Part shown: piece after piece, positions 73-23,270 of the stretch
How the letters are laid out: every line of letters starts with the position of its first letter
Position numbering within the stretch: position 1 is the stretch's first letter
Virus record (IMG/VR): IMGVR_UViG_3300005937_000001
Coordinates: 1 to 64,000 of that record
Strand: one strand, 5' to 3'
DNA length: 64,000 bases
DNA from: a virus
Taxonomy: Duplodnaviria; Caudoviricetes
Program-made: the position numbers and the translations under genes
Notes under the pieces: generated by a model
What the model saw: only the letters and a program-made list of their open reading frames with translations
Told to the model about the DNA's origin: nothing
Database searches by the model: none

Positions 73-509
73 CCGACCCGTTCGAGGATTTCGCCGATCG
101 CAATTCGACCGCGTACAATCGTGCGCGCATGCGTGCGGCCGAGACCAAGGCCGAGCGCGAGCTAGCCAAGAAGCAGTTCGAGCGTGACTTCATCTTCGAG
201 GAGTGGAAGAAGTGGCATGAGGAGCGCAAAGTAGCGCTGCTCGCGGGTCCGCATGGCGAGCAGGCGCAGGAGCTGTGCTATTTTCTCGAGACGATGACCA
301 TCGCGGACGCCGCGGCGCTGGTCGAGCTGGTCAAGCGCGGGGCCTGGCACGAGACCAACGCCGACACGCGCTTTCTGGTTCAGACACTGATCGGCCGCAC
401 CATCATGTGCGTACGCGAATGCGAGGGTCTGCCGCCGTTCGACGATCCGCTTCCGTTTAGTGATGAAGAGTTGAACGCGTCGCTGATCATCAGGGAGTTG
501 CTGAAGTGA
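69..509 (+). CDS. hypothetical protein, 146 aa
   Basis: ATGA-coupled to the upstream gene; natural composition; phage-like codon use. Confidence 0.7.
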   Translation: MTDPFEDFADRNSTAYNRARMRAAETKAERELAKKQFERDFIFEEWKKWHEERKVALLAGPHGEQAQELCYFLETMTIADAAALVELVKRGAWHETNADTRFLVQTLIGRTIMCVRECEGLPPFDDPLPFSDEELNASLIIRELLK

Positions 510-703
510 CCATCCATCGCGTCCATGGCTGCATCGCGTTTGAGTGTGACGGTTGCGGCGAGGTACTCGAAACCAATCAGGGAGATTTCTACGATGCACT
601 CGCAGAGCTTAAAAAGACGGACTGGAGAATAATAAAGGTCGTAGGTGGGCACACCGAAACGTGGGAGCATCGTTGCCCTGATTGTGAGGATGAAGAAGAA
701 TGA
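506..703 (+). CDS. small zinc-ribbon protein (CxxC...CxxC)
   Basis: FECDGCGE...HRCPDCE; overlapping start/stop coupling on both sides. Confidence 0.7.
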   Translation: MTIHRVHGCIAFECDGCGEVLETNQGDFYDALAELKKTDWRIIKVVGGHTETWEHRCPDCEDEEE

Positions 704-1779
704 GCATCATCAAAGAGGCATTCGAGAAACACGCGCGCAGTGCGCGGCAGAAGTTCAAGCGCGCCCGCGAGCAGACCGTCGGCGCCAGCGAGATCGGCCA
801 GTGTGCGCGCAAGATTTGGTACCGCAAGCATGGGCATCCGTACGATGAGAACTACGCCGACGGCTGGGGCGCAGCACGCCGCGGCAACGTGTTCGAGAAG
901 AGCTTCTTCGTGCCGGCGCTGCGCAAGCACTACGGCGATAAGCTGATCTTCGCTGGTGGTCAACAGCAGCGCTACGTCGACAAGCTGTTGAGCGCAACGC
1001 CCGACGGCATCTTGATCGACCAGCCGCGCAATCTGCTTGCACACCTAATGGTGCCCGACATCGGGCCCAGTCGCTGCGTGGTGATCGATTGCAAGACCAT
1101 CGACCCTCGTATTAACCTTTCGGAGCCGAAGGGTGAACATGTCTTCCAAGTGCAGGTGCAGCTCGGGCTCGTGCGCAAGCTGACTAAATTCAAGCCGGAC
1201 TTTGGTATTTTGGCCTACACCAACGCCAGCTTCTTCGACGACAACGTGGAGTTCGTTGTTAAATTTGACCCAGAAGTATTTCAAGAGGCAGTTAAAAGGT
1301 CAGTCGCCATCATGACCAGCGTCAACGCCTCGGACCTGAAGCCCGAGGGCTGGATCGACGGCGGCGACGAATGCAAGTATTGCCCATTTCTAGCTAGCTG
1401 TAGGGCCCTGCGGGGTCGGGTGCCACTAAATGATGATGTGGCGCAGGACAAGCAGTTTATAGCGGAGCTTGTGGACCTGGCAGGGCAGGAACGTGCAGCC
1501 CATGGCAAGGTTGATGAGGCCTCAAAGGCCCACCGTGAGCTACAAGAAAAAATTAAATCGAGGATGAGGGAAAAGGGCTTGCGCTTTATCAAGACCCGTG
1601 AACTTAATGTGACGTGGTCGGCCGTGAAGGGCAGACCGTCATACGACATGGTGGGGATCAAAGCAGCTGCAGCCGCAGCCGGCATTGACCTCCAGCGGTT
1701 CGAGACAGTCGGTGAACCTTCCGACCGATTGCTAGTCAGCGTCACTAAACAGGATCGTTTGGTGACGCGGAAGCCGTGA
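700..1779 (+). CDS. Cas4-like / PD-(D/E)XK exonuclease
   Basis: ASEIGQCARKIWY N-terminal Cys, TPDG...IDCKT nuclease core, QVQVQL motif, CKYCPFLASC C-terminal Fe-S-type Cys cluster. Confidence 0.85.
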   Translation: MSIIKEAFEKHARSARQKFKRAREQTVGASEIGQCARKIWYRKHGHPYDENYADGWGAARRGNVFEKSFFVPALRKHYGDKLIFAGGQQQRYVDKLLSATPDGILIDQPRNLLAHLMVPDIGPSRCVVIDCKTIDPRINLSEPKGEHVFQVQVQLGLVRKLTKFKPDFGILAYTNASFFDDNVEFVVKFDPEVFQEAVKRSVAIMTSVNASDLKPEGWIDGGDECKYCPFLASCRALRGRVPLNDDVAQDKQFIAELVDLAGQERAAHGKVDEASKAHRELQEKIKSRMREKGLRFIKTRELNVTWSAVKGRPSYDMVGIKAAAAAAGIDLQRFETVGEPSDRLLVSVTKQDRLVTRKP

Positions 1780-7276: not shown

Positions 7277-7648
7277 ATGGCGAAACGCCGTGCAAGGGTC
7301 AAGCTCTCCAAGGCCCAAATTTTGGAGAATGACAGCAACAAGTGGCAAGCTAAGAAAGCAGCTGCGATCGAGCAGCTGATTAAGTCGATGGCTCACCTCA
7401 AAGATGTTGAGCGACGTCAGCGACGCCTCGACAAGGCGGTGGCCAAGCCCAAGCCGAAGCGCAAGGCGAAGACGTTGAGCGAGAGCAGCTCGGACATCGC
7501 GAGTGCGATGATCCAGGGCAAGAGCTTTGAGGAGGCTGAATCACCTCCGCAAGCTAAGCTTGATGACCGTGAGTCGAGAATGAAGGCGATGGGTTTTCGC
7601 AAGACTAGGCGCCGAAATGAGAAGGCTCAATCGGTAGTAACTGGTTGA
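7277..7648 (+). CDS. basic Lys/Arg-rich hypothetical protein
   Basis: GGAG RBS; followed by a terminator. Confidence 0.7.
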   Translation: MAKRRARVKLSKAQILENDSNKWQAKKAAAIEQLIKSMAHLKDVERRQRRLDKAVAKPKPKRKAKTLSESSSDIASAMIQGKSFEEAESPPQAKLDDRESRMKAMGFRKTRRRNEKAQSVVTG

Positions 7649-7669
7649 TTGTAATTGCTGATTAGCCCT

Positions 7670-7705
7670 GAGGGTCGCGTTGAAAGGCGCGGCCCTCTTC
7701 TTTGT
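7670..7705 (+). terminator. Rho-independent terminator
   Basis: GAGGGTCGCGT-tgaaag-GCGCGGCCCTC stem (with GU pairs) followed by TTCTTTGT. Confidence 0.7.
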
Positions 7706-7806
7706 GTGCGTGCTTGTGGGGGCTTGTGTTTGAAACCCGACAGGTGTAAGGCGAACTTGGTACGGGTGGTATGACACACTCGCGGGATATCGAGATGTAG
7801 GCGCAA

Positions 7807-8460: not shown

Positions 8461-8945
8461 TGACACGACGCAAAAACAAAGTTCACTCGTCACCGACACC
8501 AATGGTGACCAGTGCGAAGAAGAAATTGTTTTTGGAGCGGCTCAAGGATGGCGATGCGCCAGGCTGTGCCGCCGCTGCAGTTGATGTTGCTCGTTCGACT
8601 GCGTATGCCTGGAAAAAAGACGATACCGAGTTCAGCGCGCTATGGGATGATGCTGTTGCGACATATCTCGACTCGATGGAGACCGAGTACGTCAATCTCG
8701 CAAAAGATGATCCTGAGAACGTCGCTGTTCGTGCGAGGATCATCGAGTACACGCTGAGCCATCGGCGCCGTGATCAGTGGGGCGAGCGCGATGATAATCA
8801 AGCACCAGCTACGCAGAACAATTATTTTCTTGATGTCACGATGCAGGAGCGGCTCGAACGTCTCGATCGATTAGGCTTGCCGCGGCCAGTGTTCGAGAGC
8901 GATCGTGAAGAGGACTATGCTCCACAAACCAACGACGATCCATGA
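8460..8945 (+). CDS. terS: terminase small subunit (HTH type)
   Basis: KKLFLERL...CAAAAVDVARSTAYAWKKDDTEFSALWDDA HTH pattern; overlaps the terL start; start codon uncertain (8442, 8460 or 8502). Confidence 0.75.
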   Translation: MTRRKNKVHSSPTPMVTSAKKKLFLERLKDGDAPGCAAAAVDVARSTAYAWKKDDTEFSALWDDAVATYLDSMETEYVNLAKDDPENVAVRARIIEYTLSHRRRDQWGERDDNQAPATQNNYFLDVTMQERLERLDRLGLPRPVFESDREEDYAPQTNDDP

Positions 8946-10401
8946 GGACCTGACGTCTCGGGTTGCTGACACACAGTACGGCGAGATCGAACTTGCCGAA
9001 GCGCTTAGAAATTTCTGGCACTATCGCATTTTGATGAACCCACGTCTGCGCTTGCAGAACATGTGGTTCCCGCGCATGCTCGCGACCAAGCTGCGCACAT
9101 TCTATAACGATTTCAAGGCCGGCAAGAAGCCGGTGATGCTGTTGTGCACGCCGCCACAGCACGGCAAGTCGCTCAGCGTAATCGACTTCATTGCCTGGTG
9201 CGTTGGTCACGATCCAGAGCTGCGCGTGATCTACAGCTCGTTCTCGGATCGCCTCGGTATCCGCGCAAACTTGCGCATGCAGCGCGCGCTTGACAGCAAA
9301 CTCTATCGTCTATTGTTTCCGAATACGCGGCTCAACGACAAGCACATCGTCACCATCGCCGAGCGATCGCTACGCAATCACGACGTCTTAGAGTTCGTTG
9401 GGCATGAGGGCTACTTCCGCAACACGACGGTGCTAGGCTCGATCACTGGTGAAGCGCTCGACCTGGCCGTGATCGATGATCCGATCAAAGGACGTGCTGA
9501 AGCGCAGTCGGAGCTGCAGCGCGAGAAGACCTGGAACTGGATGACCGATGACGTGCTCTCGCGCTTCTCTGAGCACGCTGGCATGATCATGATCATGACG
9601 CGTTGGCACGTCGATGATCCCGCGGGCAGGATGATCGAGCACTTCGGCAAGCACGTGACCGTGGTGCGCTTCCCTGCTCTCGCCGAGCACGATGAGCTGT
9701 ATCGTAGAGCAGGCGCGCCGCTGTTTCCTCAGCTCAAGTCGCTCGAGTTTTTGCTTGAGCGCAAGAAGCTCTACACGCAAGCATCGTGGGAAGCACTCTA
9801 TCAGCAGAACCCGTTTATCGTTGGCGGTGGCATCTTCCCGATCGACAAGCTGGTGCCGCTGCAGGTGATGGATCGTTCGCGCATCTTGAAGAGCGTGCGC
9901 TTCTGGGACAAGGCTGCGACCGAAGATGGTGGTGCGTTCACTGCTGGCGCACTGCTGCACATGACGAAAGATAATCGCTTCATCATCGAGCATTGTGTGC
10001 GTGGTCAGTGGTCGTCGCTTGATCGCGAGGAGCGCATCAAGTTCTGGGCCGAGCATGATCGCAACAACAGCCGGCCAGGCGCGTATGAGGTGGGCGTTGA
10101 GCAGGAGCCAGGAAGCGGCGGCAAGGAAAGCGCGGAGAGCACGATCCGCAACCTTCGTGGCTTCAAGGTCTACGCGGACAAGGTCACGGGTTCGAAAGAG
10201 GTACGAGCCGAGCCGTTCGCTGCGCAGGTGCAAGGCGGCAACGTCTACATCGTCGCCGGCAACTACCAAGTTGATCTGCTTGATGAGATGGTGTCGTTCC
10301 CTAACGGCAAATATCGCGACCAAGTTGACGCTTGTTCGGGGGCGTTCAACCGACTAATCTCTGGGCCGGTGTACAACCTGTTCGGAGGCGCGGTTGATTG
10401 A
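8905..10401 (+). CDS. terL: terminase large subunit
   Basis: Walker A PPQHGKS, Walker B AVIDDPIKG, coupling motif IMTRWHVDD, nuclease WDKAAT...EQEPGSGGK...DQVDACSGAF. Confidence 0.95.
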   Translation: MKRTMLHKPTTIHEDLTSRVADTQYGEIELAEALRNFWHYRILMNPRLRLQNMWFPRMLATKLRTFYNDFKAGKKPVMLLCTPPQHGKSLSVIDFIAWCVGHDPELRVIYSSFSDRLGIRANLRMQRALDSKLYRLLFPNTRLNDKHIVTIAERSLRNHDVLEFVGHEGYFRNTTVLGSITGEALDLAVIDDPIKGRAEAQSELQREKTWNWMTDDVLSRFSEHAGMIMIMTRWHVDDPAGRMIEHFGKHVTVVRFPALAEHDELYRRAGAPLFPQLKSLEFLLERKKLYTQASWEALYQQNPFIVGGGIFPIDKLVPLQVMDRSRILKSVRFWDKAATEDGGAFTAGALLHMTKDNRFIIEHCVRGQWSSLDREERIKFWAEHDRNNSRPGAYEVGVEQEPGSGGKESAESTIRNLRGFKVYADKVTGSKEVRAEPFAAQVQGGNVYIVAGNYQVDLLDEMVSFPNGKYRDQVDACSGAFNRLISGPVYNLFGGAVD

Positions 10402-10994
10402 TGGCGTACCTACGCAGTAAAAAATGTCTGGTGTGCAAGAAGCTCGTGTATGCCAGGAATTTTTGTAGAAAGCATTACGAGTACAATCGAAAATACGGTG
10501 ACCCCTACATCAGGCCACCGATAGGAGCGCCACGAAAGGGTGGGTTGAGTTGGGTCAAGCAGCATGTGAATTATCGTGGTCGACGTTGTTTGCTTTGGCC
10601 GTTTCCAAGAAGTGGATCAGGTTATGGTCAAGTGCGAACTGAAGAAGGGAGACGAATAGGCGCTCACGTGTTCATGTGTGAATTAGTGAACGGTTCAGCG
10701 CCTTCGGATCAATATGAGGCATCACATCTGTGCGGACGTGGGAAGTTAGGGTGCGTGCACCCCAAACATGTGATTTGGGAAACTCCGTCCGAGAACAATT
10801 TGCGTAAAAGAAAACATGGGACAGATTTTCGTGGCGAGCGCGGTACGAATGTCAAGTTGACAAATGCTGACGTGATTGAGATTCGAAAACGAGTAGCTGC
10901 CAAAGAAGTGCAATGGAAAATTGGAATGGACTATGGAGTAGGCAGTCGGGCGATTTCTAAAATCGCAACTCGGGTTACGTGGCGGCATATATGA
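10401..10994 (+). CDS. free-standing HNH / zinc-binding-loop homing endonuclease
   Basis: CLVC...FCRKHY N-terminal motif; CLLWPF...GYG...AHVFMC...SHLCG...GCVHPKHVIWETPSEN; lower GC than its neighbours. Confidence 0.85.
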   Translation: MAYLRSKKCLVCKKLVYARNFCRKHYEYNRKYGDPYIRPPIGAPRKGGLSWVKQHVNYRGRRCLLWPFPRSGSGYGQVRTEEGRRIGAHVFMCELVNGSAPSDQYEASHLCGRGKLGCVHPKHVIWETPSENNLRKRKHGTDFRGERGTNVKLTNADVIEIRKRVAAKEVQWKIGMDYGVGSRAISKIATRVTWRHI

Positions 10995-13618: not shown

Positions 13619-13731
13619 ATTTTGATAATTGGAACGCGGTCAGCAAGCGCATTGTCATCGGATTGATGGTGGCGTTCAGCGTGGCGATGATCTTTCTGTT
13701 CTTAGCGTTGGCGTTCACAAATGGTGACTGA
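13615..13731 (+). CDS. 38-aa single-TM peptide (not in ORF track)
   Basis: GTG start; IVIGLMVAFSVAMIFLFLALAF; stop overlaps the portal ATG. Confidence 0.5.
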   Translation: MNFDNWNAVSKRIVIGLMVAFSVAMIFLFLALAFTNGD

Positions 13732-15230
13732 TGGCATCACTGCTGCAATTTCCGCGCATACGCTTTCCGTTTCAGGATAGCTTCAAGAACCTGCTCGCCG
13801 GCTTCGGCATGCCTGGTCGCGACAAAGCCGCGACGCAGCAGTTCACGCTCAACCTGCTCGATCCAGTGCAATTGCACAACGCCTACCGCGGCGACTGGGT
13901 GAGCAGGAAGATTTGCGACATACCGCCGTTCGATGCATGCCGCGCCTGGCGTGAATGGCAAGCCGAGCAGGACCAGATCGAAAAGATTGAGAAGGCTGAG
14001 AAGGACTTCAACCTGCAGCACAAGCTGATGTGGACGCTATCGAAGGCGCGTCTCTACGGCGGCGCTGTGATGGTGATGGGGATTGAAGGCCAGAAGTTCG
14101 AGGATGAACTGGACGTTGAAAGCGTAGGCGAGGGCGATCTCAAGTTCATTCACTGCGTAACACGTTGGCAGATCAGCGCGGGCCCGTTGATGCGCGACAT
14201 CACCAGCCCATGGTTCGGTGAGCCAACCTACTACTACCGCACTAACTCACCAGTGCCCGATCCGCCTGGTGGCGTGCAGCCACCCGAGGGATCGAGCTTG
14301 GGTCATCAACCTGGTCAAGACCTGTGGATACATCCAAGCCGTGTCGTGCGCCTGATTGGCCTCGACTATCCCGACTGGGAGCAGGCGCCCGATCAGTGGG
14401 GCGACAGCGCGCTGCAGCCAGTGTTCGACGCCATCGCCAACGCTGGCCTGGTCTCCAGCTCGATTGCGCACATGATCAGCGAAGCCAAGCTCGATGTGAT
14501 CAAGGTGCCTGGCTTGATGGAGATGTTGTCGACCACCGAGGGTAGCTCGAAGGTGCTCGATCGCTTCAGCCAGGGCAATGCCGCGAAGAGTGTCGTCAAT
14601 GCCACGCTGCTCGACAGCACCGAGGAGTGGGAACGCATCCAGATCGCGTTCGCCGGCATGGACAACGTCATGTCGATGTACTTGATGATCGCAGCGGGGG
14701 CTGCGGATATCCCCGCGACGCGCTTGCTTGGACGCGCGCCCGCGGGAGAGAATGCGACTGGCGAAAGCGACATGCGCAACTACTATGATCGCCTGCAGGC
14801 CGATCAGAAGGTACGCATTCAGCCGGCACTCGCGCGCCTCGATGAGGTGCTGCTGCGCCACGTGTTCGGCGATCGCGACGAGGACATCTACTACGAATGG
14901 TCGCCGCTCTGGCAGCTCGACGAAGAGCAGAAGGCCGCGGTCGCGCTCGCGAAAGCGCAGGCACACAAGATCGACGTCGATGCTGGCCTGATCAATCCCG
15001 AGGTGTTGCGTGAAGCGCGCGCTAATCAACTGATCGAGGATGGGTTCTATCCTGGCATCGAGGCAGCGATCGACGAGTACGAGCTTGAGCCCGACGAGGA
15101 AGATGAACAAGCTCACGCTGCGCTCGATCTGAAACTGAAAGAGCAGACACTCACCAATCTGAAAAAGCCGCAGCCAATGCAGAAGCCTGGTGCGGCGCCG
15201 AGGCCTAAGCTGGCCTCGTTGCAGAAGTAA
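13731..15230 (+). CDS. portal protein (DUF1073 type)
   Basis: DSFKNLLAGFG..GRDK, AYRGDWVSRKICDIPPFDACRAWRE, ARLYGG, IHPSRVVR, AGAADIPATRLLG, SDMRNYYD; between terL and MuF. Confidence 0.9.
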   Translation: MASLLQFPRIRFPFQDSFKNLLAGFGMPGRDKAATQQFTLNLLDPVQLHNAYRGDWVSRKICDIPPFDACRAWREWQAEQDQIEKIEKAEKDFNLQHKLMWTLSKARLYGGAVMVMGIEGQKFEDELDVESVGEGDLKFIHCVTRWQISAGPLMRDITSPWFGEPTYYYRTNSPVPDPPGGVQPPEGSSLGHQPGQDLWIHPSRVVRLIGLDYPDWEQAPDQWGDSALQPVFDAIANAGLVSSSIAHMISEAKLDVIKVPGLMEMLSTTEGSSKVLDRFSQGNAAKSVVNATLLDSTEEWERIQIAFAGMDNVMSMYLMIAAGAADIPATRLLGRAPAGENATGESDMRNYYDRLQADQKVRIQPALARLDEVLLRHVFGDRDEDIYYEWSPLWQLDEEQKAAVALAKAQAHKIDVDAGLINPEVLREARANQLIEDGFYPGIEAAIDEYELEPDEEDEQAHAALDLKLKEQTLTNLKKPQPMQKPGAAPRPKLASLQK

Positions 15231-15763: not shown

Positions 15764-15982
15764 ATGATCCTCAAGCTCACCGATCCTGATGGCGGTCCAA
15801 TCTGGATCGTTGCTCGCTGGGTGACGCAGCTCAAGTTGCCGCCCCGCGGTCAATACTCCGAGCATGCGCGCACGCTTATCGTGCTTGGTGCACGCGAACA
15901 GGCTGTGCGCGAAACGCCTGAGGAGATCGTCAAGCTTTTGAAGGACAACGATGACGCTGGCGCAACTGTTCGACGCGCATAA
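15764..15982 (+). CDS. FlbD-like small phage protein
   Basis: MILKLTDPDGGPIWI...TLIVL...AVRETPEEIVKLL pattern. Confidence 0.6.
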   Translation: MILKLTDPDGGPIWIVARWVTQLKLPPRGQYSEHARTLIVLGAREQAVRETPEEIVKLLKDNDDAGATVRRA

Positions 15983-18900
15983 AGCACGCGATCCAACGCA
16001 AACGATCAAGCTGCGCAAAGCGTTTCGTGCCACTGCTAAGCTTCGCTTGCGCCAACTGCGTGCGGCCATGCGCGTCGCTGTGGTCGACCACAACTTGCTC
16101 AGCTACTCGACCCAGGGCGCACTCGCTTACGCGCCCGCGCACACGCGCCTGGAAGCGTTCGTCGGTTGGATCGAGGCGACTGGTGGGCAGTATCTACTCG
16201 GCTCTGACTGGGCGCGGCCTTTCATCGAGCGTGCCTGGCGCATGGGTGAAGCTAAGGCGGTGCGCGAGACTGGCAAGGCTGCTGGCCCCGACGAGTCCGA
16301 TGACCTGGTCGCACGGGCGCGCAACGAGATCACTGGCATTCTTGCTGCACTGGTGCAGCAGACCAGCCGGCAAGCGGCGAGCATCATCGCTCGTGGTACG
16401 CGTCGGCAACAAGCGTTGCGCGAGTTGTTCGCTGTGTTCGATCGAGTTGCGCTGCCGCGCCTGATCGCGGTGGCCGACGTTACGGTGATCAAGGCCTACA
16501 ACGAAGCCAAGTTGAATTGCTATGCCGCCGGCGGCATCAAGCACGTGGGCGTCCATGCTGAAACACTTCCTAACAATCATCGAACGACTCGCATGGATGC
16601 TGCTGATCGTGTTGCGACGCCGGAGGAGATACTTGCCGAGGAGGAAGAGCTTGTCGGCATCCTGACCGCCGGCGACGACAAGGTCTGTCAGCGCTGCGAG
16701 GACTGGGCAGAAGATTCGCCCTACGAGATCGAAGAGGTGCGTGACGTCTATCCACTGCACCCGCGCTGTCGCTGTGCAGTCTATCCATGGGAAGACCTGC
16801 GCTTCAAAGGTGAGGACAAGGAGTGGGAGGAAGAGAAGCACCCGCGCGTGGCTGCGGGCTCGCCTGAGGGCGGACGCTTCACGAGCTGGGGCGGTGCCGA
16901 GCACGGCGAAGAGGTTTCAGAGAAACAAGCTGCATCGGTCAAAGCGCTGGCCGAAGCGGTGCCAGGCCTGAAGAATTTCCTACCCTATATGGCGCCCGAT
17001 GAAGTCAATCGGGTGAAGAAGGCCAACGTCAAGCGCATGGTCGAGCTGTTCACCACGTTTCCGGTGGAAGCTGAGGAGATGGCCGCGGTTGCTTACTCTG
17101 GCGGCGCCAAGCGTGGTTGGTATCGCAAGAGCGCAAAGGCTTTGCTCGACGTGTTCGGTGCAGTCGACGCGCCGCGTTTTGCTTCGCTGCTGGCAGCGCT
17201 CTCGCCGCAGACTGGCGTCGAGGATAACGCGATCAATGCACTCAACACCTGGACCAACTGGGTGCGCGCTGGCCGGCCGACCGATCGTGACAGCATCGTC
17301 AAGGTACTCGGCCAGAGCGTGCAAGGTGAGAAAGGCGCCGAGAGCATCCTGCCTGCGTGGATCAACAACTCAGTCACCGCACTGAGCACGCCCGATCCCG
17401 AGGCGATCGTGCTGTCTGGCCCGAAGGTCGATTCGTTCGCCTACAATCTTCGCGACCACGTCAACGCGGTCACGCTCGACAGCTGGATGGCGAACTATCT
17501 CGGCATTAAGCAGGCACTGTTCGCACGGCGCCAGGCGGTGCCTGGTGTGCGACCAGGCAAGGGGCCGATGTACATCGCCACTGCGGCGATGACGCGACGA
17601 GCTGCTGAGATACTGACGCAACGCACCGGTGAGAAGTGGACGCCGGCAGAAATTCAAGAGACCATCTGGTCGTGGGCAAAGACGCTGTACGAACGCGCGA
17701 GCGCGGACAAAACCACAGTGGCGCAGCTGCTCGAAGCTGGCAGCGTCACGCACAAAGACATCGCCGACACGCCAGACTTTGCGATACTGTTCACGCAGAA
17801 CGTCTATCGCAAAATTCTCGAGGAAGGCGGCTATGGCAAGCAAGCGGCGGCGATTGCAGCAAGCAATCGAGAACCTGATCTCACTGCAGGAGGAAGAAGC
17901 AGCCTTACGTCAGCCGAAGGCTCAGGCATTCCTCAGGATGCTTTCACCCGTCACCTCCTCAAAGCCGCGGGGCGGCTCGACCTCCTCCGAGAAGAGCGAG
18001 CCAAGCGAAAAGCCGGAGAAGAAGAGGTAGACAGCCTCGACGCCTGGATCGAGTTCGAAGACTACGATCCTGACGAGCCACGCGATCCACTCGGCAAGTG
18101 GACCACTGGCGGTAGTGGGCATCCAGGCGCAGGCTACAGCGCCAGCGCTCGCATCGACAGCAAGGGCGTCATCCACACCTCGAACGTTTATGACGCGCAG
18201 CGCGCGCTGTTCGAAAACCGCAAGGTCGAGCTAAAGCAAATCAAGCAGGTTTCAACGCTGATTAAGCGCCTGGGTGAGACCGCAGCCGAGATGGCCGAGC
18301 ATGGCGAGAAGGCGCCGGTATTCAATCTCTGCAACGTCAGCGTCGAAGGCACCAACCTCTTTTGCTCCGAGCACAAGGGCATCCCGCGCATCAAGATGCC
18401 GGTGATTCCGCGCAAGCAGACCAAGGAGTTCATCAAGCACCTTGAGGCGCGCGGTTACAAAACCGAGAAGAGCACCGAGCGCGCTGATCACTTACGCGCC
18501 ACGCAAGACGAGATCGACGGCGCCAAGGTGGCGCAGTCAATGGCGCGCATCGATAGAGAAGGCTTCTACAAGCGCCTGGTGGTGTCGCGCGACGACTACA
18601 TCGTCGATGGCCATCACACCTGGGCGGCGCAGCTCGGTGTTGATGCGCGCGACGGCACGCTCAAAGGCGACAAGACGGTCAAGATCACGCGCGTCGACAT
18701 CGGCATCATTCAGCTGCTGCACGAAGCCAACGCTTGGACCACCAAGCAAGGCATCCAGCGCAAGGCGGCTGGTGATGCACTCGACTTCAATCCCGATCAG
18801 CCGCGCGTGCCCGCGGGTGAGAGCACTGGCGGTCAATGGACCAGTGGCGGCGGTGGCATCGAGCATGGAATGATCGAGGTGCCGGCGCGCACCTTCGTGG

Positions 18901-20732
18901 AGTCGCGCGACGTCTCGACCCGTCAACAGTTTCTCTCACCGCATCCTGCGGAAGAGCTGGGCCAGCACACGCTGCTGCTCAATCGTGAGGGCAACGTTGG
19001 CATCTCAATCGATCAGCACGGCGATGTGCAGAATGTGTTCAACAACGGCGGACCCAAAGGAGGTGCAGCAAAAGCGATGGTAGCAGCAATCGAGCACGGC
19101 GGCCGTACGCTCGACTGCTACGATGGGTTTTTACCTAGCTACTACGGCCAGTTCGGATTCAAAGAAACGCAAAGAATGAAGTTCAATCCGGCGTACGCAC
19201 CGCCAGGATGGGACTTTGCGAAATACGACAACCCCGATATTGTCTTCATGAGTTGGGGCGGCTATGTGCAGGGAGGCGAGCGTGAAGCGATTGCGCGCGC
19301 CTCCTCGCGCAAGGACTGGATCAAGGTTGAGAGGACGCAAAGCTATGGCGACGACTGGGATGCCGCAAAAGCCGCAAGCCGAGACGCAGCAGCAGTTGGA
19401 GCTGCAGTTCATCGAGGAGCTGGAGCAGCACCACGGCCGCAAACTCAGTCCGCAGGAAGCCGCGCTGGCTTTGGAGCAGGCGAAAGCTCTGGGGGAGATA
19501 AGCTCCTCCTAGTCTCCGAGCAGCCTGGCGCGGCCAAGCTCGACAAGTGGCAAGCGGAGATCAAGGCTCGACGCGACGAGAAAGAAAAAGCCGAGCAGTT
19601 CGGCGATCGCGAAGACGATCAGCTCGCCTACATGGCCAAGGCGCTGAAAGAGTACAGCGATATTGACCAGCTCGATGCGGGCCGTGCTGGCATCAACGTT
19701 GTCTACGGTGGGCCGCACGATAGCGACGAGACCAAGCTGCTCGCTGCTGTGCTCACTCGCTTCAACCCACGTCAAGGCGTCGCCCGCATCACGCTCTCTG
19801 GTGGCATCGATGCCGACGCGCACATCAAGGCACTGCAACAAGTCGTAGCACGTTACGGGTCTCAGGCTGAACGCATCGAGGCGCAAATCTGGGGTGACGA
19901 CCTAGAGAGCGCAATCATTTACGAGAAGGCTGGCTTCAAGATCAGCGGCACCACCGATCTTGGGATGACGCGGCTAGTTTATGGCAAGGAAGGACCCACC
20001 GCACGCGAGCAGGAGGCGGCAGAGAAGCTCGCGGTCGCGCGGAAGAACGAAGTTGAGTCGAAGGCTCGCATCGCTGCCGCGCAGCTCGACTTCAACCCCG
20101 ACAACGTCGAGTTCACTGACGCCGACGACACGTTCGAACTTAATGGCGTGAAGATGCATTTCGCCGGCTCCTACACGCGCGGGTCTGCGAAGGTCAAAAT
20201 CTATCATCAGCATGTGGCGCTTGCCAGCGTCGCCGGCGTCACTGCGCATGAGATCGGACACCGCAAGCTCGACGCCTTGCGCGCACGCTACCGCGACGAA
20301 TACCGCGACATGCTGGCCGAGCCTGGTGCGCCGCCTGATCCACAAGGCGAACGTTGGTGGCAACAGCGCGGCGGCCACGAGACCGTCATGATGGCGAGTG
20401 GTGAGCTGCGCGAACCCTACGCCTCAAAATATCCGGTCTATCATCAGTGGGAGACCAACGTTGAACTTAAGCGTGACAAGCTGCGCAAGAGCGACGGTGT
20501 CACCGACTACTCGAAGGAATACTGGAAGGGCTTCGAGAAGGGCGAGATACCGATCGACAAGGCGATGCACGAGACCATCGCCGAGATGACGCGGATCAAG
20601 TTCGAGACTGGCAAGCTGCCAGGCTCACCCGAGTGGAAGACGCTGTACAAAATGATCGAAGAGAACTGGTCGAAGATGTCACCGCTTGAACGTGCAGTCG
20701 AACAGCACAGCAGTGAAAAGGCGAGATGGTGA
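15951..20732 (+). CDS. MuF (Mu gpF / SPP1 gp7-like) minor head protein fused to several enzymatic modules (polyvalent protein, 1593 aa)
   Basis: ARDPTQT N-terminus and TAGDDKVCQRC...HPRCRC MuF core; then a WY...AALSPQ...GPKVDSF...VTLDSW module, ParB-like ATQDEI...DGHH, GNAT-like LDCYDGFL..YY.QFGF, a second GNAT-like IYEKAGF, and zincin HEIGH...HETIAE; between portal and protease. Confidence 0.85.
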   Translation: MTLAQLFDAHKARDPTQTIKLRKAFRATAKLRLRQLRAAMRVAVVDHNLLSYSTQGALAYAPAHTRLEAFVGWIEATGGQYLLGSDWARPFIERAWRMGEAKAVRETGKAAGPDESDDLVARARNEITGILAALVQQTSRQAASIIARGTRRQQALRELFAVFDRVALPRLIAVADVTVIKAYNEAKLNCYAAGGIKHVGVHAETLPNNHRTTRMDAADRVATPEEILAEEEELVGILTAGDDKVCQRCEDWAEDSPYEIEEVRDVYPLHPRCRCAVYPWEDLRFKGEDKEWEEEKHPRVAAGSPEGGRFTSWGGAEHGEEVSEKQAASVKALAEAVPGLKNFLPYMAPDEVNRVKKANVKRMVELFTTFPVEAEEMAAVAYSGGAKRGWYRKSAKALLDVFGAVDAPRFASLLAALSPQTGVEDNAINALNTWTNWVRAGRPTDRDSIVKVLGQSVQGEKGAESILPAWINNSVTALSTPDPEAIVLSGPKVDSFAYNLRDHVNAVTLDSWMANYLGIKQALFARRQAVPGVRPGKGPMYIATAAMTRRAAEILTQRTGEKWTPAEIQETIWSWAKTLYERASADKTTVAQLLEAGSVTHKDIADTPDFAILFTQNVYRKILEEGGYGKQAAAIAASNREPDLTAGGRSSLTSAEGSGIPQDAFTRHLLKAAGRLDLLREERAKRKAGEEEVDSLDAWIEFEDYDPDEPRDPLGKWTTGGSGHPGAGYSASARIDSKGVIHTSNVYDAQRALFENRKVELKQIKQVSTLIKRLGETAAEMAEHGEKAPVFNLCNVSVEGTNLFCSEHKGIPRIKMPVIPRKQTKEFIKHLEARGYKTEKSTERADHLRATQDEIDGAKVAQSMARIDREGFYKRLVVSRDDYIVDGHHTWAAQLGVDARDGTLKGDKTVKITRVDIGIIQLLHEANAWTTKQGIQRKAAGDALDFNPDQPRVPAGESTGGQWTSGGGGIEHGMIEVPARTFVESRDVSTRQQFLSPHPAEELGQHTLLLNREGNVGISIDQHGDVQNVFNNGGPKGGAAKAMVAAIEHGGRTLDCYDGFLPSYYGQFGFKETQRMKFNPAYAPPGWDFAKYDNPDIVFMSWGGYVQGGEREAIARASSRKDWIKVERTQSYGDDWDAAKAASRDAAAVGAAVHRGAGAAPRPQTQSAGSRAGFGAGESSGGDKLLLVSEQPGAAKLDKWQAEIKARRDEKEKAEQFGDREDDQLAYMAKALKEYSDIDQLDAGRAGINVVYGGPHDSDETKLLAAVLTRFNPRQGVARITLSGGIDADAHIKALQQVVARYGSQAERIEAQIWGDDLESAIIYEKAGFKISGTTDLGMTRLVYGKEGPTAREQEAAEKLAVARKNEVESKARIAAAQLDFNPDNVEFTDADDTFELNGVKMHFAGSYTRGSAKVKIYHQHVALASVAGVTAHEIGHRKLDALRARYRDEYRDMLAEPGAPPDPQGERWWQQRGGHETVMMASGELREPYASKYPVYHQWETNVELKRDKLRKSDGVTDYSKEYWKGFEKGEIPIDKAMHETIAEMTRIKFETGKLPGSPEWKTLYKMIEENWSKMSPLERAVEQHSSEKARW
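17833..18030 (+). CDS. nested +1-frame ORF inside the MuF polyprotein (65 aa)
   Basis: AGGAAGG RBS; MASKRRRLQQAIENLISLQEEEAALRQPKAQAFLRML...; host-frame codons over the first half are unusually A/T-ending. Confidence 0.5.
   Translation: MASKRRRLQQAIENLISLQEEEAALRQPKAQAFLRMLSPVTSSKPRGGSTSSEKSEPSEKPEKKR
19345..19512 (+). CDS. nested +1-frame ORF inside the MuF polyprotein (55 aa)
   Basis: GAGGA RBS 9 nt before ATG; MATTGMPQKPQAETQQQLELQFIEELEQHHGRKLSPQEAALALEQAKALGEISSS; +1 frame is CAG/CTG/GAG/TTC/ATC-rich while the host frame is GCA/GGA/GCT low-complexity. Confidence 0.65.
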   Translation: MATTGMPQKPQAETQQQLELQFIEELEQHHGRKLSPQEAALALEQAKALGEISSS

Positions 20733-20947
20733 GTGAACGTGTTACTGCGCCCTGGACTGAAGAGCAGGTTGCTGCGCTCAACGAGTATCAGCATTCTGGC
20801 TGCTTCCATCCCTACACGTGCCCATTCAACAGCGGCGCCTGTCTTGTCGCGACACGTGAGGGCTGGGTCTGCGAGCATTGCGGCTACACCCAAGACTGGA
20901 TGCTCTGGCCAATCCCCGAGGTCCCAATACTTGGGAGGAAAGCGTGA
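20726..20947 (+). CDS. small Cys/His-rich phage protein
   Basis: PWTEEQVAALNEYQ..G.FHPYTC...LVATREGWVCEHCGYTQDW. Confidence 0.7.
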   Translation: MVSERVTAPWTEEQVAALNEYQHSGCFHPYTCPFNSGACLVATREGWVCEHCGYTQDWMLWPIPEVPILGRKA

Positions 20948-21117
20948 CGATTGAAACCGCGGTCGTAAAAAACCGGCCGGCAATCGTGTCGTACCTTAAC
21001 GATCGCTTCGAGCCAGTCGAGAAGACAATCGCCACGTTGGTGAAGGTCAACTTCACCGACGACGAGGCCGGCGCGTTCTTTGCAGTGGTGGATCGTGAAC
21101 CCGCGCGAGTTGGTTGA
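20944..21117 (+). CDS. hypothetical protein, 57 aa
   Basis: GGAGG RBS, GTGA coupling; IETAVVKNRPAIVSYLNDRFEPV...LVKVNF. Confidence 0.6.
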   Translation: MTIETAVVKNRPAIVSYLNDRFEPVEKTIATLVKVNFTDDEAGAFFAVVDREPARVG

Positions 21118-21283
21118 AGTATCGTGGGAGACTCCGCTTGGCCGGCAGGAGTGGCGCCAGGCGGTCATTCTCTGCGTGATGCCGCGGCTGCTGATTATCC
21201 AATACCAGGATGGTCGGCGGCACTGCTTGCCGAAAGAGCATGTGCGGCCGATGCTTCAGCCGGTCATGCGCATGACGATGTAG
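21080..21283 (+). CDS. hypothetical protein, SH3-like beta pattern
   Basis: LVEVSW...AVILCV...LIIQYQDG; start uncertain. Confidence 0.45.
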   Translation: MQWWIVNPRELVEVSWETPLGRQEWRQAVILCVMPRLLIIQYQDGRRHCLPKEHVRPMLQPVMRMTM

Positions 21284-21795
21284 GTGTCGTTGGCCCAAAC
21301 TCTGGGCCAGAGAGCACGGTTGGGATCGTTCGCAAGAAACTCGCCCAGATCATCTTTCCTGAGCATGACGTGGTTATTCCAAATGCGACCCCTTCCGAGC
21401 GCTAGTGGAATGTCTGGGGTTAGATGCTTCAGTAAATCGTGCAGCCACGAATTAGCTATCATCTCTTTGAGTTGATCCACAGGCGGCTGCCGCTGCTTAA
21501 AATAGTCTTCCGCCACTTTGGCTTCAGCTTTTTTCTCGGCTTGGTGTTTTAGAAATTCCTCTGCCGCTTTGTGCGCCTCTCTGCGTGTCAACTCCGCGGT
21601 TGGTGGATTGATGTAGCTGCGCTGTTGCAGCGGCACTGGATCGTAACGCAAACGATTGCTGTCGGGATGTGTCTCGATCAGGCCGACTGCTTCGATCTCG
21701 TGCTGACACTGCGTCATGTCACCCCACTCGTCATCGAAATCAGGATCGACGCTCGGGCAATCGGGGATGAGAAAGAACCCTTGTGTCGGTTTCAT
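21256..21795 (-). CDS. hypothetical protein on the opposite strand inside the head module (about 179 aa)
   Basis: Only long ORF over this interval; natural sequence (EAHKAAEEFLKHQAEKKAEAK); weak RBS. Confidence 0.55.
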   Translation of the reverse strand: MKPTQGFFLIPDCPSVDPDFDDEWGDMTQCQHEIEAVGLIETHPDSNRLRYDPVPLQQRSYINPPTAELTRREAHKAAEEFLKHQAEKKAEAKVAEDYFKQRQPPVDQLKEMIANSWLHDLLKHLTPDIPLALGRGRIWNNHVMLRKDDLGEFLANDPNRALWPRVWANDTYIVMRMTG

Positions 21796-21830
21796 TCGCT
21801 CACTGTAGCACAGTAAAGCGGAGATTGAAA

Positions 21831-22004
21831 ATGACTCTTGGTCTCGCTTTTTGGATTTTAATGCTGATCTGGCTGGTGTTTGGCCTGGTCTGGCACTTCG
21901 GCTACGCCCCCGCATCCTGGGCCGTCGGGGTCAATAGCCTGCTGCTGTTCGTGCTGTTCGTCTTGCTTGGTTGGCAAGTATTTGGCGCACCGCTGCACAG
22001 GTGA
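21831..22004 (+). CDS. 57-aa two-TM membrane protein
   Basis: MTLGLAFWILMLIWLVFG...NSLLLFVLFVLLGWQVFGAPLH; GGAG RBS. Confidence 0.75.
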   Translation: MTLGLAFWILMLIWLVFGLVWHFGYAPASWAVGVNSLLLFVLFVLLGWQVFGAPLHR

Positions 22005-22007
22005 CTC

Positions 22008-23270
22008 ATGCCGCTCACAGCGAAGGGTGAAAAAATTCTCGCCGCGATGATCGAAGAATACGGCGAAGAGGAAGGCAAGCGCATTTTCTACGCCAGCAAG
22101 AACGCCGGCAAGATCACTGGAGTTGATTGCGACATGAACGACGCATTGATTCTCGAGTTCGACGACCGCGCGAACGCAGCGATCATCGACGGCGGTTACA
22201 TGCGCGCGATGCCACGCATAGCACGTACCGGCATTCAGATTTATCACGGCAAGGAGTGCGGTCGCCCTGAGATGGAAAAGGTGCGCGTGTTCCGCCCGCA
22301 AGATGCAGTGTTCGGTAACGCCGCAGTGAAATCCTACACGCACCTACCCGTCACGCTCGATCATCCTGGCGTGTCCGTCGATTCCACCAACTGGAAAAAG
22401 TACGCAGTCGGCGAGACCGGCGAGGACGTACTACGCGATGGCGGCACCGTGCGCGTGCCGATGATGCTGCGCGATGCCACTGCAATCGCTGCAGTGAAGG
22501 ACGGCAAGAACCAAATCAGTGTTGGCTATTCGTGTGACCTCGAATGGGTCGATGGCATCACGGAAGACGGCCAGAAGTACGACGCGGTGCAGAAGAACAT
22601 CCAGGGCAACCACGTGGCCATCGTTTCCACCGCACGCGGTGGCCCTGAACTGAAATTCGGCGATAGAGGAGATGACGTTATGGCCGAACTCAAGACACTC
22701 ATGATCGACGGCATCGCGTGCCAAATGACCGACACTGCTTCGGTGCTCGTGCAGAAGCTGCTCGACAATTTCGAGGAGTTCAAAAAGAAGAAAAAGAAGG
22801 AAGAGGAGGCCGAAGAGGACGGGCTCAAGAGGGATATCGCAGCCAAGGACGCTGCGATCGTCGTCAAGGATAAGGAGATCGTCGAGCTGCAAGCGAAGCT
22901 TACTGATGCACTCAAGCCCGAGCGCACCCGCGATGCAGCCATCAAGCTGCTTGCCGTCATCGACAAAGCGCAGAAAGTCACCGGCAAGGCCATCAAGTTG
23001 GACAGCGTCACCGATGCTGCAAACGTCATGCGTGAGGTTGTCAACGGCAAGCTTGGTGATGCAGCCAAGGGCTGGGATGACAACAAGATCGACGCTGCTT
23101 TCGACGCCATCACGCTGACGACGTCCAGCAAGCCGATCAACGACGCGATCAACGCATTCAATCGGCCGGCCTTCCACCATCCAAGCGGCACGACTGATCC
23201 GCGTGACCAGGCCTACTACGACTCTGTCAAAGAGTTGGAAAACGCTTGGAAGAAGCCGGTAGCTTCGTAA
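22008..23270 (+). CDS. DUF2213-type prohead protease / scaffold
   Basis: PRIARTGIQIY, FRPQDAVF, SYTHLPVTLDHP, QISVGYSC, QKNIQGNHVAIVSTARGG; C-terminal helical scaffold; extra N-terminal MPLTAKGEKIL...FYASKNAGKITGVD micro-domain. Confidence 0.9.
   Translation: MPLTAKGEKILAAMIEEYGEEEGKRIFYASKNAGKITGVDCDMNDALILEFDDRANAAIIDGGYMRAMPRIARTGIQIYHGKECGRPEMEKVRVFRPQDAVFGNAAVKSYTHLPVTLDHPGVSVDSTNWKKYAVGETGEDVLRDGGTVRVPMMLRDATAIAAVKDGKNQISVGYSCDLEWVDGITEDGQKYDAVQKNIQGNHVAIVSTARGGPELKFGDRGDDVMAELKTLMIDGIACQMTDTASVLVQKLLDNFEEFKKKKKKEEEAEEDGLKRDIAAKDAAIVVKDKEIVELQAKLTDALKPERTRDAAIKLLAVIDKAQKVTGKAIKLDSVTDAANVMREVVNGKLGDAAKGWDDNKIDAAFDAITLTTSSKPINDAINAFNRPAFHHPSGTTDPRDQAYYDSVKELENAWKKPVAS

Follow-up and report, generated by a model that had tools for sequence, protein, structure and literature searches.

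What is an open reading frame (ORF) of 1,593 codons doing among the genes that build a phage head, and what would so long a product carry? The question is raised by a gene lying between the portal gene and the head maturation protease gene of IMG/VR virus record IMGVR_UViG_3300005937_000001 (Duplodnaviria; Caudoviricetes), a single 87,424-bp record of an uncultured phage, of which the first 64 kb form the window analysed here. The protein is a mosaic of four independently shuffling cassettes, comprising five folds, behind a MuF-like domain. Its class is known: it is a further phage-type polyvalent protein, rich but not new in kind. It probably acts as a carrier inside the head, by which enzymes enter the capsid and, most likely, also reach the next host along with the DNA.

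A word-index search for long relatives yielded 69 other proteins of 885-2,770 residues, and local BLAST was used to map the segments shared with them (Table 1). In the relatives these segments occur at varying positions and next to varying neighbours, and the borders drawn from this shuffling agree with those proposed in a first-pass annotation of the sequence. Companions of the cassettes include ART-PolyVal, LPD families, ADP-ribosyltransferases, FAD oxidoreductases, portals and protease-capsid fusions; the Pfam families found on the relatives are ART-PolyVal (PF18760) and LPD (PF18857, PF18834 and PF18838), as well as PF11697 and PF03496. The first-pass annotation had counted five cargo modules. 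Five folds are indeed present, but the last two, modules E and F, behave as one evolutionary unit, so that the cargo consists of four mobile cassettes rather than five separate units. Because the segments are shuffled both in position and in company, as described by Iyer et al. 2017 (PMC5512222), we assign the protein to the polyvalent class, in agreement with the earlier proposal of a MuF-anchored polyvalent protein. Polyvalent proteins combine at least two domains of disparate activity in one chain, and here five distinct folds follow MuF. They are found in portal-terminase phages in the neighbourhood of virion genes, and here TerL, portal, protease/scaffold, cement and capsid genes flank the locus. 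Finally, through its relatives, the protein has domains and architectures in common with the recovered network (MuF, MPTase, ParB, GNAT, ART and LPDs), in which MuF, the ParB family, GNAT and the zincin peptidase MPTase are hubs of the phage-type part (PMC5512222). When the six segments were searched separately against Pfam and NCBIfam, the sole match was DUF7178 in module B, the only segment of the window protein matched by Pfam. The Pfam models for DdrB-type ParB and MPTase-PolyVal did not match any of the segments, and sequence and profile searches of the PDB gave either no match or insignificant ones for the whole protein, B, D and E+F.

Table 1. Coordinates of the polyvalent protein, its parts and flanking head genes, with the segments common to long relatives
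Feature	Residues	Position in window	Strand	Evidence
Large terminase		8905-10401	+	among genes flanking the polyprotein (TerL)
Portal protein		13731..15230	+	PF06381 E 7e-100
Whole polyvalent protein gene	1,593 residues	15951..20732	+	open frame of 1,593 codons, ribosome-binding-site start, 65%-identical full-length relative P0002
Module A, MuF-like head anchor	1-290	15951..16820	+	phrog_758 E 1.4e-8 over residues 10-279
Tag 1, A/B junction	295-315	16833..16895	+	regular expression and junction mapping
Module B, DUF7178, HhH-GPD glycosylase-like	316-705	16896..18065	+	PF23802 E 2e-9; AlphaFold2 model
Hairpin LSGPK of module B		17412-17438	+
K492	492	17424-17426	+	invariant in 25 sequences
D510	510	17478-17480	+	invariant in 25 sequences
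Tag 2, B/C junction	706-723	18066..18119	+	regular expression and junction mapping
Module C, ParB/Srx-like	724-945	18120..18785	+	phrog_2859 E 6e-23
Core motif DDYIVDGHHTW		18591-18623	+	profile match to 1vk1 and 5x0j on motif
Tag 3, C/D junction	947-969	18789..18857	+	regular expression and junction mapping; disordered in model, pLDDT < 50
Module D, GNAT topology	971-1154	18861..19412	+	AlphaFold2 order b1-a1-a2-b2-b3-b4-a3-b5-a4-b6-b7, pLDDT > 90
NNGGPKGGA loop of module D		19026-19079	+	invariant N-x-x-N-x-G-x-x-G after strand 4
+1-frame 55-codon ORF over end of D and D-E linker, candidate D partner		19345..19512	+	GAGAGGA 9 nucleotides upstream
Module E, GNAT fold	1183-1348	19497..19994	+	VIA-align Z 12.4; Foldseek probability 1.0
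Module F, zincin-like metallopeptidase	1351-1585	20001..20705	+	HEIGH 20247-20261; HETIAE 20568-20585
Head maturation protease / scaffold (DUF2213, Pa193 gp24 family)		22008..23270	+	PF09979 E 5e-49; phrog_530 E 3e-84
Segment A	1 to ~300			common to 13/69 relatives
Segment B	~320-700			common to 28/69 relatives
Segment C	~705-945			common to ~31/69 relatives
Segment D	~945-1180			common to ~20/69 relatives
Segment E+F	1186-1593			common to 4/69 relatives

The chain begins with the putative anchor, module A. The PHROG family that it matches is annotated as head morphogenesis, and tblastn aligned module A with a protein of Halorubrum phage Hardycor1 that is annotated as MuF-like (23% identity over 93%, E 2e-11). 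As for MuF/SPP1 gp7 proteins, the gene comes right after the portal gene, and the C-terminal end of module A bears a Cys/His motif, CxxC...HPxCRC (residues 246-275, 16686-16775), which we take to be a mark of that family. The MuF core had been predicted to end near 16790; the position of this motif, the end of the PHROG 758 match at residue 279 and a domain end at about residue 290 fit that estimate well. Membership of the family is remote, since the Pfam MuF model has no match in module A; TIGR01641 scores E 0.15, below its cut-off.

Module B was modelled with AlphaFold2 from an alignment of 25 sequences that are 40-62% identical to the window module. The model is all-helical (predicted local distance difference test (pLDDT) 85.7, predicted template-modelling score (pTM) 0.85) and was compared exhaustively with 48,161 representative chains by VIA-align. 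In the 50 rows listed, 21 of the top 24 are HhH-GPD enzymes or Qng1/DUF2419, which has the fold in common with them (Z 10.1 to 5.3); rows 1-21 are all occupied by HhH-GPD enzymes except for two Qng1 structures. The best neighbour is the 8-oxoguanine glycosylase (Ogg) Tm1821 of T. maritima (3n0u, Z 10.1, 183 residues, root-mean-square deviation (rmsd) 3.7 A), ahead of EndoIII-3 of D. radiodurans (8a5g, Z 8.9, 204 residues). Further neighbours are MagIII (1pu6, Z 7.5), Mag1 (3s6i, Z 7.4), AGOG (1xqp, Z 7.4), MutY (1rrq, Z 7.3), E. coli EndoIII (2abk, Z 7.2, 182 residues), OGG1 (8vx4, Z 7.0), NTHL1 (7rdt, Z 6.9), ROS1 (7yho, Z 6.4) and AlkA (3ogd, Z 5.3). The program warns that Z below ~13 can be trivial for helical models, and a Z of ~10 is by itself not decisive for an all-helical model; it is the filling of the top of the list by one small superfamily, not Z alone, that supports an HhH-GPD DNA-glycosylase-like fold for the modelled module. 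An SLT/lysozyme fold, considered by analogy with T7 gp16, is not favoured, as no such row is among the 50 listed.

Several searches weigh against this assignment. Module B has no HhH-GPD match in Pfam, PF00730 included, at E up to 10; a PDB profile search gave no link to HhH-GPD; and a Foldseek comparison of the model with the PDB returned nothing at E <= 0.001. Comparison by hhalign with an Nth/MutY/AlkA alignment gave 0.3%, against a reference of low diversity and E. coli type: a scan of genome contigs with E. coli Nth recovered only 87-100% identical sequences from Enterobacterales and related taxa. Since this profile-profile comparison was empty, the link of module B to HhH-GPD holds at the fold level only.

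Residues at the putative active site may point in the same direction as the fold. The invariant K492 starts a helix that comes after a short helix and an L-S-G-P hairpin, and the invariant D510, 18 residues on, starts the next; the two lie on either side of model helix 176-184. In E. coli EndoIII, the catalytic residues K120 and D138 are arranged and spaced alike. By our reading of the alignment and the model, in which the register was set by eye and not by a computed structural alignment, K492 and D510 would sit where EndoIII has its catalytic dyad. Module B might instead be a non-catalytic DNA clamp that holds the leading genome end by its helix-hairpin-helix, or a small-molecule N-glycosidase like the queuosine-5'-phosphate hydrolase Qng1 (DUF2419). 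Indeed, Qng1 structures rank third and fourth among the neighbours and give the longest alignments (Z 8.7 and 8.0, 213-215 residues), and the module has no sequence match to any glycosylase family. Both options nevertheless appear unlikely. More than 50 residues, many of them polar, are invariant in the 25 sequences despite identities of 40-62%, which speaks for an enzyme rather than a clamp, and the invariant Lys and Asp, in our register, flank the second hairpin helix as K120 and D138 do in EndoIII.

The glycosylase-like reading of module B is also the one suggested by the first-pass annotation, which saw an HhH/EndoIII-like fold and considered it unusual cargo. Whereas the fold is backed by the structural neighbours, the second part does not hold: module B is the second most common cassette among the long relatives (28/69), and at least 179 further, shorter relatives of 214-683 residues exist, all unnamed. 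DUF7178 is absent from 14 control cellular genomes and is known at the sequence level from metagenomes only; no paper on it was found in the literature. Behind module B, a 65-codon ORF in the +1 frame (17833-18030) has similar counterparts in two relatives (L044, 69%; L041, 41%). Its conservation is confined to stretches with homology in the main frame, and it is absent from T7-like DUF7178 genes; conservation of alternative-frame ORFs does not discriminate, as every homologous stretch scores in all frames.

Module C had been described as ParB/Srx-like. Consistent with this, a profile of 19 trimmed IMG/VR relatives matched PDB entries 1vk1 (E 1.8e-3) and 5x0j (E 9e-3), with marginal E-values, on D-Y-I-V-D-G-H-H-R-W, and the module displays the core strand-helix with a DGHHR-type motif. 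The arginine typical of the ParB/Srx superfamily active site (PMC5512222), however, is Thr890 in the window protein. The 12 closest relatives likewise have Thr; one relative has His, and Arg is found in five distant ones. The whole subfamily to which the window module belongs has lost it, with DGHH-T-W in the window clade and DGHH-R-W in distant relatives and solved members. Because of this replacement, module C is ParB/Srx-like in fold and motif, yet its chemistry may differ.

The three C-terminal modules were folded together by AlphaFold2 on a checked alignment (A6) that included two spanning sequences, giving a model with pLDDT 88.7. In this model, module D displays the full order of strands and helices of a GNAT domain. 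Comparison by hhalign with 18 E. coli GNATs gave 61% (P 8e-5) for D, with the correct a3-b5-a4 register, and 44% for E, whereas the controls B, C and F scored 0.1-0.3%. By our own reading, NNGGPKGGA matches the GNAT pyrophosphate-binding loop, Q/RxxGxG/A, after strand 4. Free-standing relatives of D have 218-303 residues. Both GNAT-like assignments made at first pass are thus supported by the model, with different firmness. PDB and Pfam profile searches with D were empty, and an Atlas search with it returned only unnamed clusters; moreover, neither D nor F has fold-search rows of its own, as E filled the hit lists of the joint model. Having no such row, module D is likely, not proven, to be a GNAT domain. 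For module E, all 50 listed VIA-align rows are GNATs, RimI, RimJ and RimL among them, and cover model residues 236-416; the GNAT domain of PAT (4u5y) superimposes over 141 residues with Z 12.4 and rmsd 2.9 A. The predicted fold of E is accordingly that of a GNAT, although 22 sequences, by our reading, display no clear Q/RxxGxG/A acetyl-CoA loop after strand 4. No relationship between D and E can be detected by sequence, since an hhalign comparison of D with E+F aligned only a common tag, described below.

F comes after module E in nearly all cases. Exhaustive searching with HMMER identified 486 E+F relatives, including many proteins of 400-600 residues that span both modules and many more that cover F alone; scans of IMG/VR with E and F gave no relatives. 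One relative (P0164) has an E-like GNAT domain followed by a different HExxH (HETGH) region, and the GNAT companion may pair with more than one type of zincin. Module F itself had been called a zincin with HEIGH at 20247, exactly where the motif lies. H248, E249, H252, E356 and E360 are at least 90% conserved in 43 module F sequences, HETxAE lying ~105 residues past HExxH. In the model, a five-stranded sheet precedes a long helix with HExxH, and HETxAE, with the third ligand Glu, is on a later helix, as in zincins. Matches of F relatives to zincin-clan Pfam families are weak (SprT-like in five, best E 0.0018; M48 in three; also M78 and reprolysin-like), as is that of the module F profile to Ste24 over the sheet and the HExxH helix (E 1.5); one Atlas cluster matched by F is named zincin-like.

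Module D appears to have a small companion. The 35-residue C-terminal core of the product of the +1-frame ORF over its 3' end recurs behind D in at least six other architectures. The partner peptide is encoded in the +1 frame inside polyproteins (L035-38, L044 and L045/46). In L157 it has a separate gene of 53 codons (7599-7760; E 2e-13), which overlaps the 3' end of a free-standing D gene and continues beyond the D stop codon. In L159 it is probably likewise a separate small gene after D, and in L158 it forms the N-terminus of the next gene. As the core recurs behind D in several architectures, the ORF is likely a real coding element, a partner gene tied to the GNAT cassette; its product may plausibly serve D as antidote or chaperone. 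Such a partner could also be regarded as an immunity-like protein, as expected if the protein were a MuF polymorphic toxin of the type of Jamet et al. 2017 (PMC5576092), in which a temperate phage provides its lysogens with a weapon against competitors and a downstream immunity protein neutralises the C-terminal toxin. Such a MuF-toxin family is documented there, and the N-terminal MuF-like domain is present here. We nevertheless consider this reading highly improbable. The chain ends in a predicted zincin, with no recognisable toxin, and has five modules instead of a single variable tip with an adjacent immunity gene. The partner ORF is located mid-protein behind D and not after the gene, where the downstream ORFs have no family match. 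Moreover, a search for a tyrosine integrase in the record, rated 98% complete by CheckV, found none.

The cassettes may also carry a common signal. A short recurring tag, disordered in the model, with the consensus [FWY]-[DEN]-[PS]-x-[HEQ]-P-R-D-x-x-G-[RK]-[WF]-T-G/D-G (short form PRDxxGxWT-GG) is found three times in the window protein, each time on a shuffling border, ahead of B, C and D. The pattern matches the collected proteins 182 times and their shuffled versions 14 times. The first tag is at most 45 residues from the N-terminus in 42 proteins, and many free-standing F proteins begin with it; among listed free-standing DUF7178 proteins, including those on T7-like contigs, only 1 of 120 carries it. 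Within a tail-gene cluster (DUF2460, BR0599-type) of L157 (7001-8748), two consecutive free-standing cargo genes, for a D-type GNAT and a Zeta-toxin-like P-loop (kinase-like) protein, start with the same extended tag. Two cleavage-based explanations fare poorly. Self-processing by F is unsupported, because F is present in 4 of the 69 long relatives and tags in 40; a head protease site is unsupported, because no other protein of the window phage, protease/scaffold and capsid included, carries the tag. Given these two facts, its position at borders and its N-terminal position in free-standing proteins, the tag more likely serves each cassette as a portable N-terminal signal for loading or docking than as a cleavage site for F or the head protease.

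That the cargo is packaged is suggested by the carriers on which the cassettes travel. Cassette C is fused to portals in P0010, P0015, P0057, P0060 and P0061 and to protease-capsid fusions in P0043 and P0047, so that MuF, portal and protease-capsid proteins represent three head-internal carriers for these cassettes. In L158 (3548-6004), a portal fused to a Zeta-toxin/AAA_33-type kinase (818 residues), a further carrier of head cargo, is directly followed by a free-standing D-type GNAT. DUF7178 proteins of 562-616 residues are encoded between the tail-tube and fibre genes of T7-like contigs, the position of T7 internal virion proteins. Finally, gp60 of Pseudomonas phage H66, the record of which notes verification by mass spectrometry, has a module 33% identical to C (E 1e-8). 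Together, the three carriers, the T7 core-protein position of DUF7178 and the C-like module of the H66 virion protein support the cargo reading. In Pseudomonas phage Pa193, the head genes of which belong to the same Pfam families as those of the window phage, liquid chromatography-mass spectrometry of virions detected proteins, including gp20 and gp21, that are encoded by unassigned genes in the vicinity of those for capsid, neck and tail (PMC11456595). For the uncultured window phage, packaging and injection are inferred from gene context, and a counter-defence role is likewise inferred.

The enzymes could alternatively work while the particle is assembled, in the producer cell or the capsid, with the DNA or head proteins of the phage itself as substrates and MuF only placing them at the portal; examples would be modification or repair of bases as the DNA is packaged, head protein acetylation and scaffold trimming. 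MuF proteins are head components and morphogenesis factors of portal-terminase phages, acting at the portal (PMC5512222). Phage enzymes of the HhH-GPD fold can be DNA-modifying transferases, and one of them, PaMx11 gp46, is at Z 5.1 from module B; the zincin, for its part, adjoins the protease/scaffold gene and could join in maturation. We regard such an assembly role as improbable, because the same cassettes occur at the internal-virion-protein position of T7-like contigs and in tail clusters, where a role in portal assembly makes little sense, and because the cargo set varies between close relatives with nearly the same head genes, a variability that characterises conflict genes rather than assembly factors.

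Delivery into the next host, which we favour, could proceed as follows. The MuF domain would dock the chain to the portal or procapsid, like MuF/SPP1 gp7, so that the cargo ends up inside the head, and the chain, or pieces cut from it, would exit through the tail with the genome. Module B may bind DNA via its helix-hairpin-helix and act on host or incoming phage DNA as a base-excision/AP-lyase-type (apurinic/apyrimidinic) enzyme with K492/D510. Module C would bind nucleotides or DNA as a ParB/Srx module, its chemistry being altered by the absence of the usual arginine. Module D may acetylate a host target, and its +1-frame partner may restrain it in the producing cell. Zincin F, with its GNAT-fold companion E, might trim or release modules, chain processing having been proposed for MPTases in general (PMC5512222). 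Candidate targets are host DNA, incoming phage DNA and defence proteins. A bolder version, which we hold only tentatively, is that DUF7178 is an active DNA N-glycosylase/AP lyase (Lys492/Asp510) delivered from virions by hundreds of uncultured phages, in polyvalent or T7-like internal proteins, and that the cassettes consist of a loading tag and an enzyme, the GNAT cassette including an overprinted partner that perhaps tames its enzyme.

The genomic surroundings agree with the annotation of a single 1,593-residue gene between portal and protease. The ORF is open throughout, has GAAGGA 6 nucleotides upstream of its ATG and comes after the portal gene (PF06381) and two small ORFs, with the DUF2213/phrog_530 gene further downstream; nearly all genes of the window are on the + strand. 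The gene is real, judging by a 65%-identical full-length relative and ~70 partial relatives in syntenic head modules. Indeed, the order portal, small ORFs, MuF polyprotein, DUF2213, cement and capsid is kept in two related contigs, the polyproteins of which are, respectively, 65% identical and partly identical to the window protein. The ~1.2 kb between the polyprotein and protease genes (20733-22007) contains only unmatched ORFs, two of them on the minus strand (20884-21168 and 21256-21915); none matched Pfam or PHROGs. PHROGs labels the family of the DUF2213 protein, phrog_530, as head maturation protease, and gp24, the homologue of the DUF2213 protein in Pa193, has been modelled as a scaffold protein (PMC11456595); genes for cement protein and major capsid protein lie downstream. 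Directly after the large terminase gene there is an HNH-type endonuclease gene (10398-10994; zf-His_Me_endon, E 2.5e-6). The 87,424-bp record has no terminal repeats.

The known concept of polyvalent proteins is left unchanged by this protein, which adds parts and testable details. Unpublished among these are the DUF7178 fold, the arginine-less ParB variant, the GNAT+zincin unit, the tag and the partner ORF behind D. Of all phage proteins, those of the polyvalent class are presumed to be the ones that encounter the host first, and they would thus represent a store of counter-defence and takeover enzymes. DUF7178, a common domain, gains a concrete and testable fold assignment as a predicted base-excision-type enzyme; were it active and delivered from the virion, it would act on DNA, by cutting or repair, just as the genome enters. 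The cargo switches among MuF, portal, protease-capsid and free-standing contexts in the form of cassettes that begin with a single short tag; if this tag is a loading signal, it could be used for loading chosen proteins into phage capsids. Furthermore, the small gene that accompanies the GNAT cassette and partly overprints it suggests that a structural gene may harbour a pair of enzyme and antidote.

Comparison with characterized systems places each part of the protein. With HhH-GPD glycosylases, module B has in common the predicted fold and the hairpin followed by an invariant Lys and, 18 residues on, an invariant Asp; its core is longer, however (~310 residues compared with ~200), identity is 6-12%, it contains no cysteines and hence no iron-sulfur loop, and its hairpin has one glycine (LSGPK). 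Module C resembles the ParB/Srx members Pyrococcus PF0380 (1vk1), the archaeal free serine kinase (5x0j) and the DdrB type of phage P1 in D-D-Y-I-V-D-G-H-H-x-W and an upstream Q-x-E strand, and differs from them in an extra N-terminal subdomain of ~80 residues and in Thr890. As in MuF/SPP1 gp7 proteins and MuF toxins, an N-terminal MuF-like domain encoded after the portal gene is followed by variable C-terminal additions; compared with the MuF polymorphic toxins of Jamet et al. 2017 (PMC5576092), there are five modules instead of one toxin tip, and neither an integrase nor a classical immunity gene was found for the window phage. The likeness to T7-type internal virion (ejection) proteins is one of position, free-standing DUF7178 proteins filling that gene block in T7-like contigs. 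The giant virion protein gp60 of H66 (Hollowayvirus) is alike in its C-like module, although it is a podophage protein of ~3,800 residues with methyltransferase-like parts and no MuF. The closest likeness in kind is with the polyvalent proteins of Iyer et al. (PMC5512222). The text of that paper does not mention a glycosylase or HhH-GPD domain, which the window protein has in module B; its DdrB-like ParB keeps the arginine that module C has replaced; modules C-F match no Pfam model; and the words 'linker', 'glycine' and 'low-complexity', under which the recurring tag might have been described, are absent from it. What the two have in common is the defining arrangement, many unrelated enzyme domains in one polypeptide encoded among the head genes of a portal-terminase phage.

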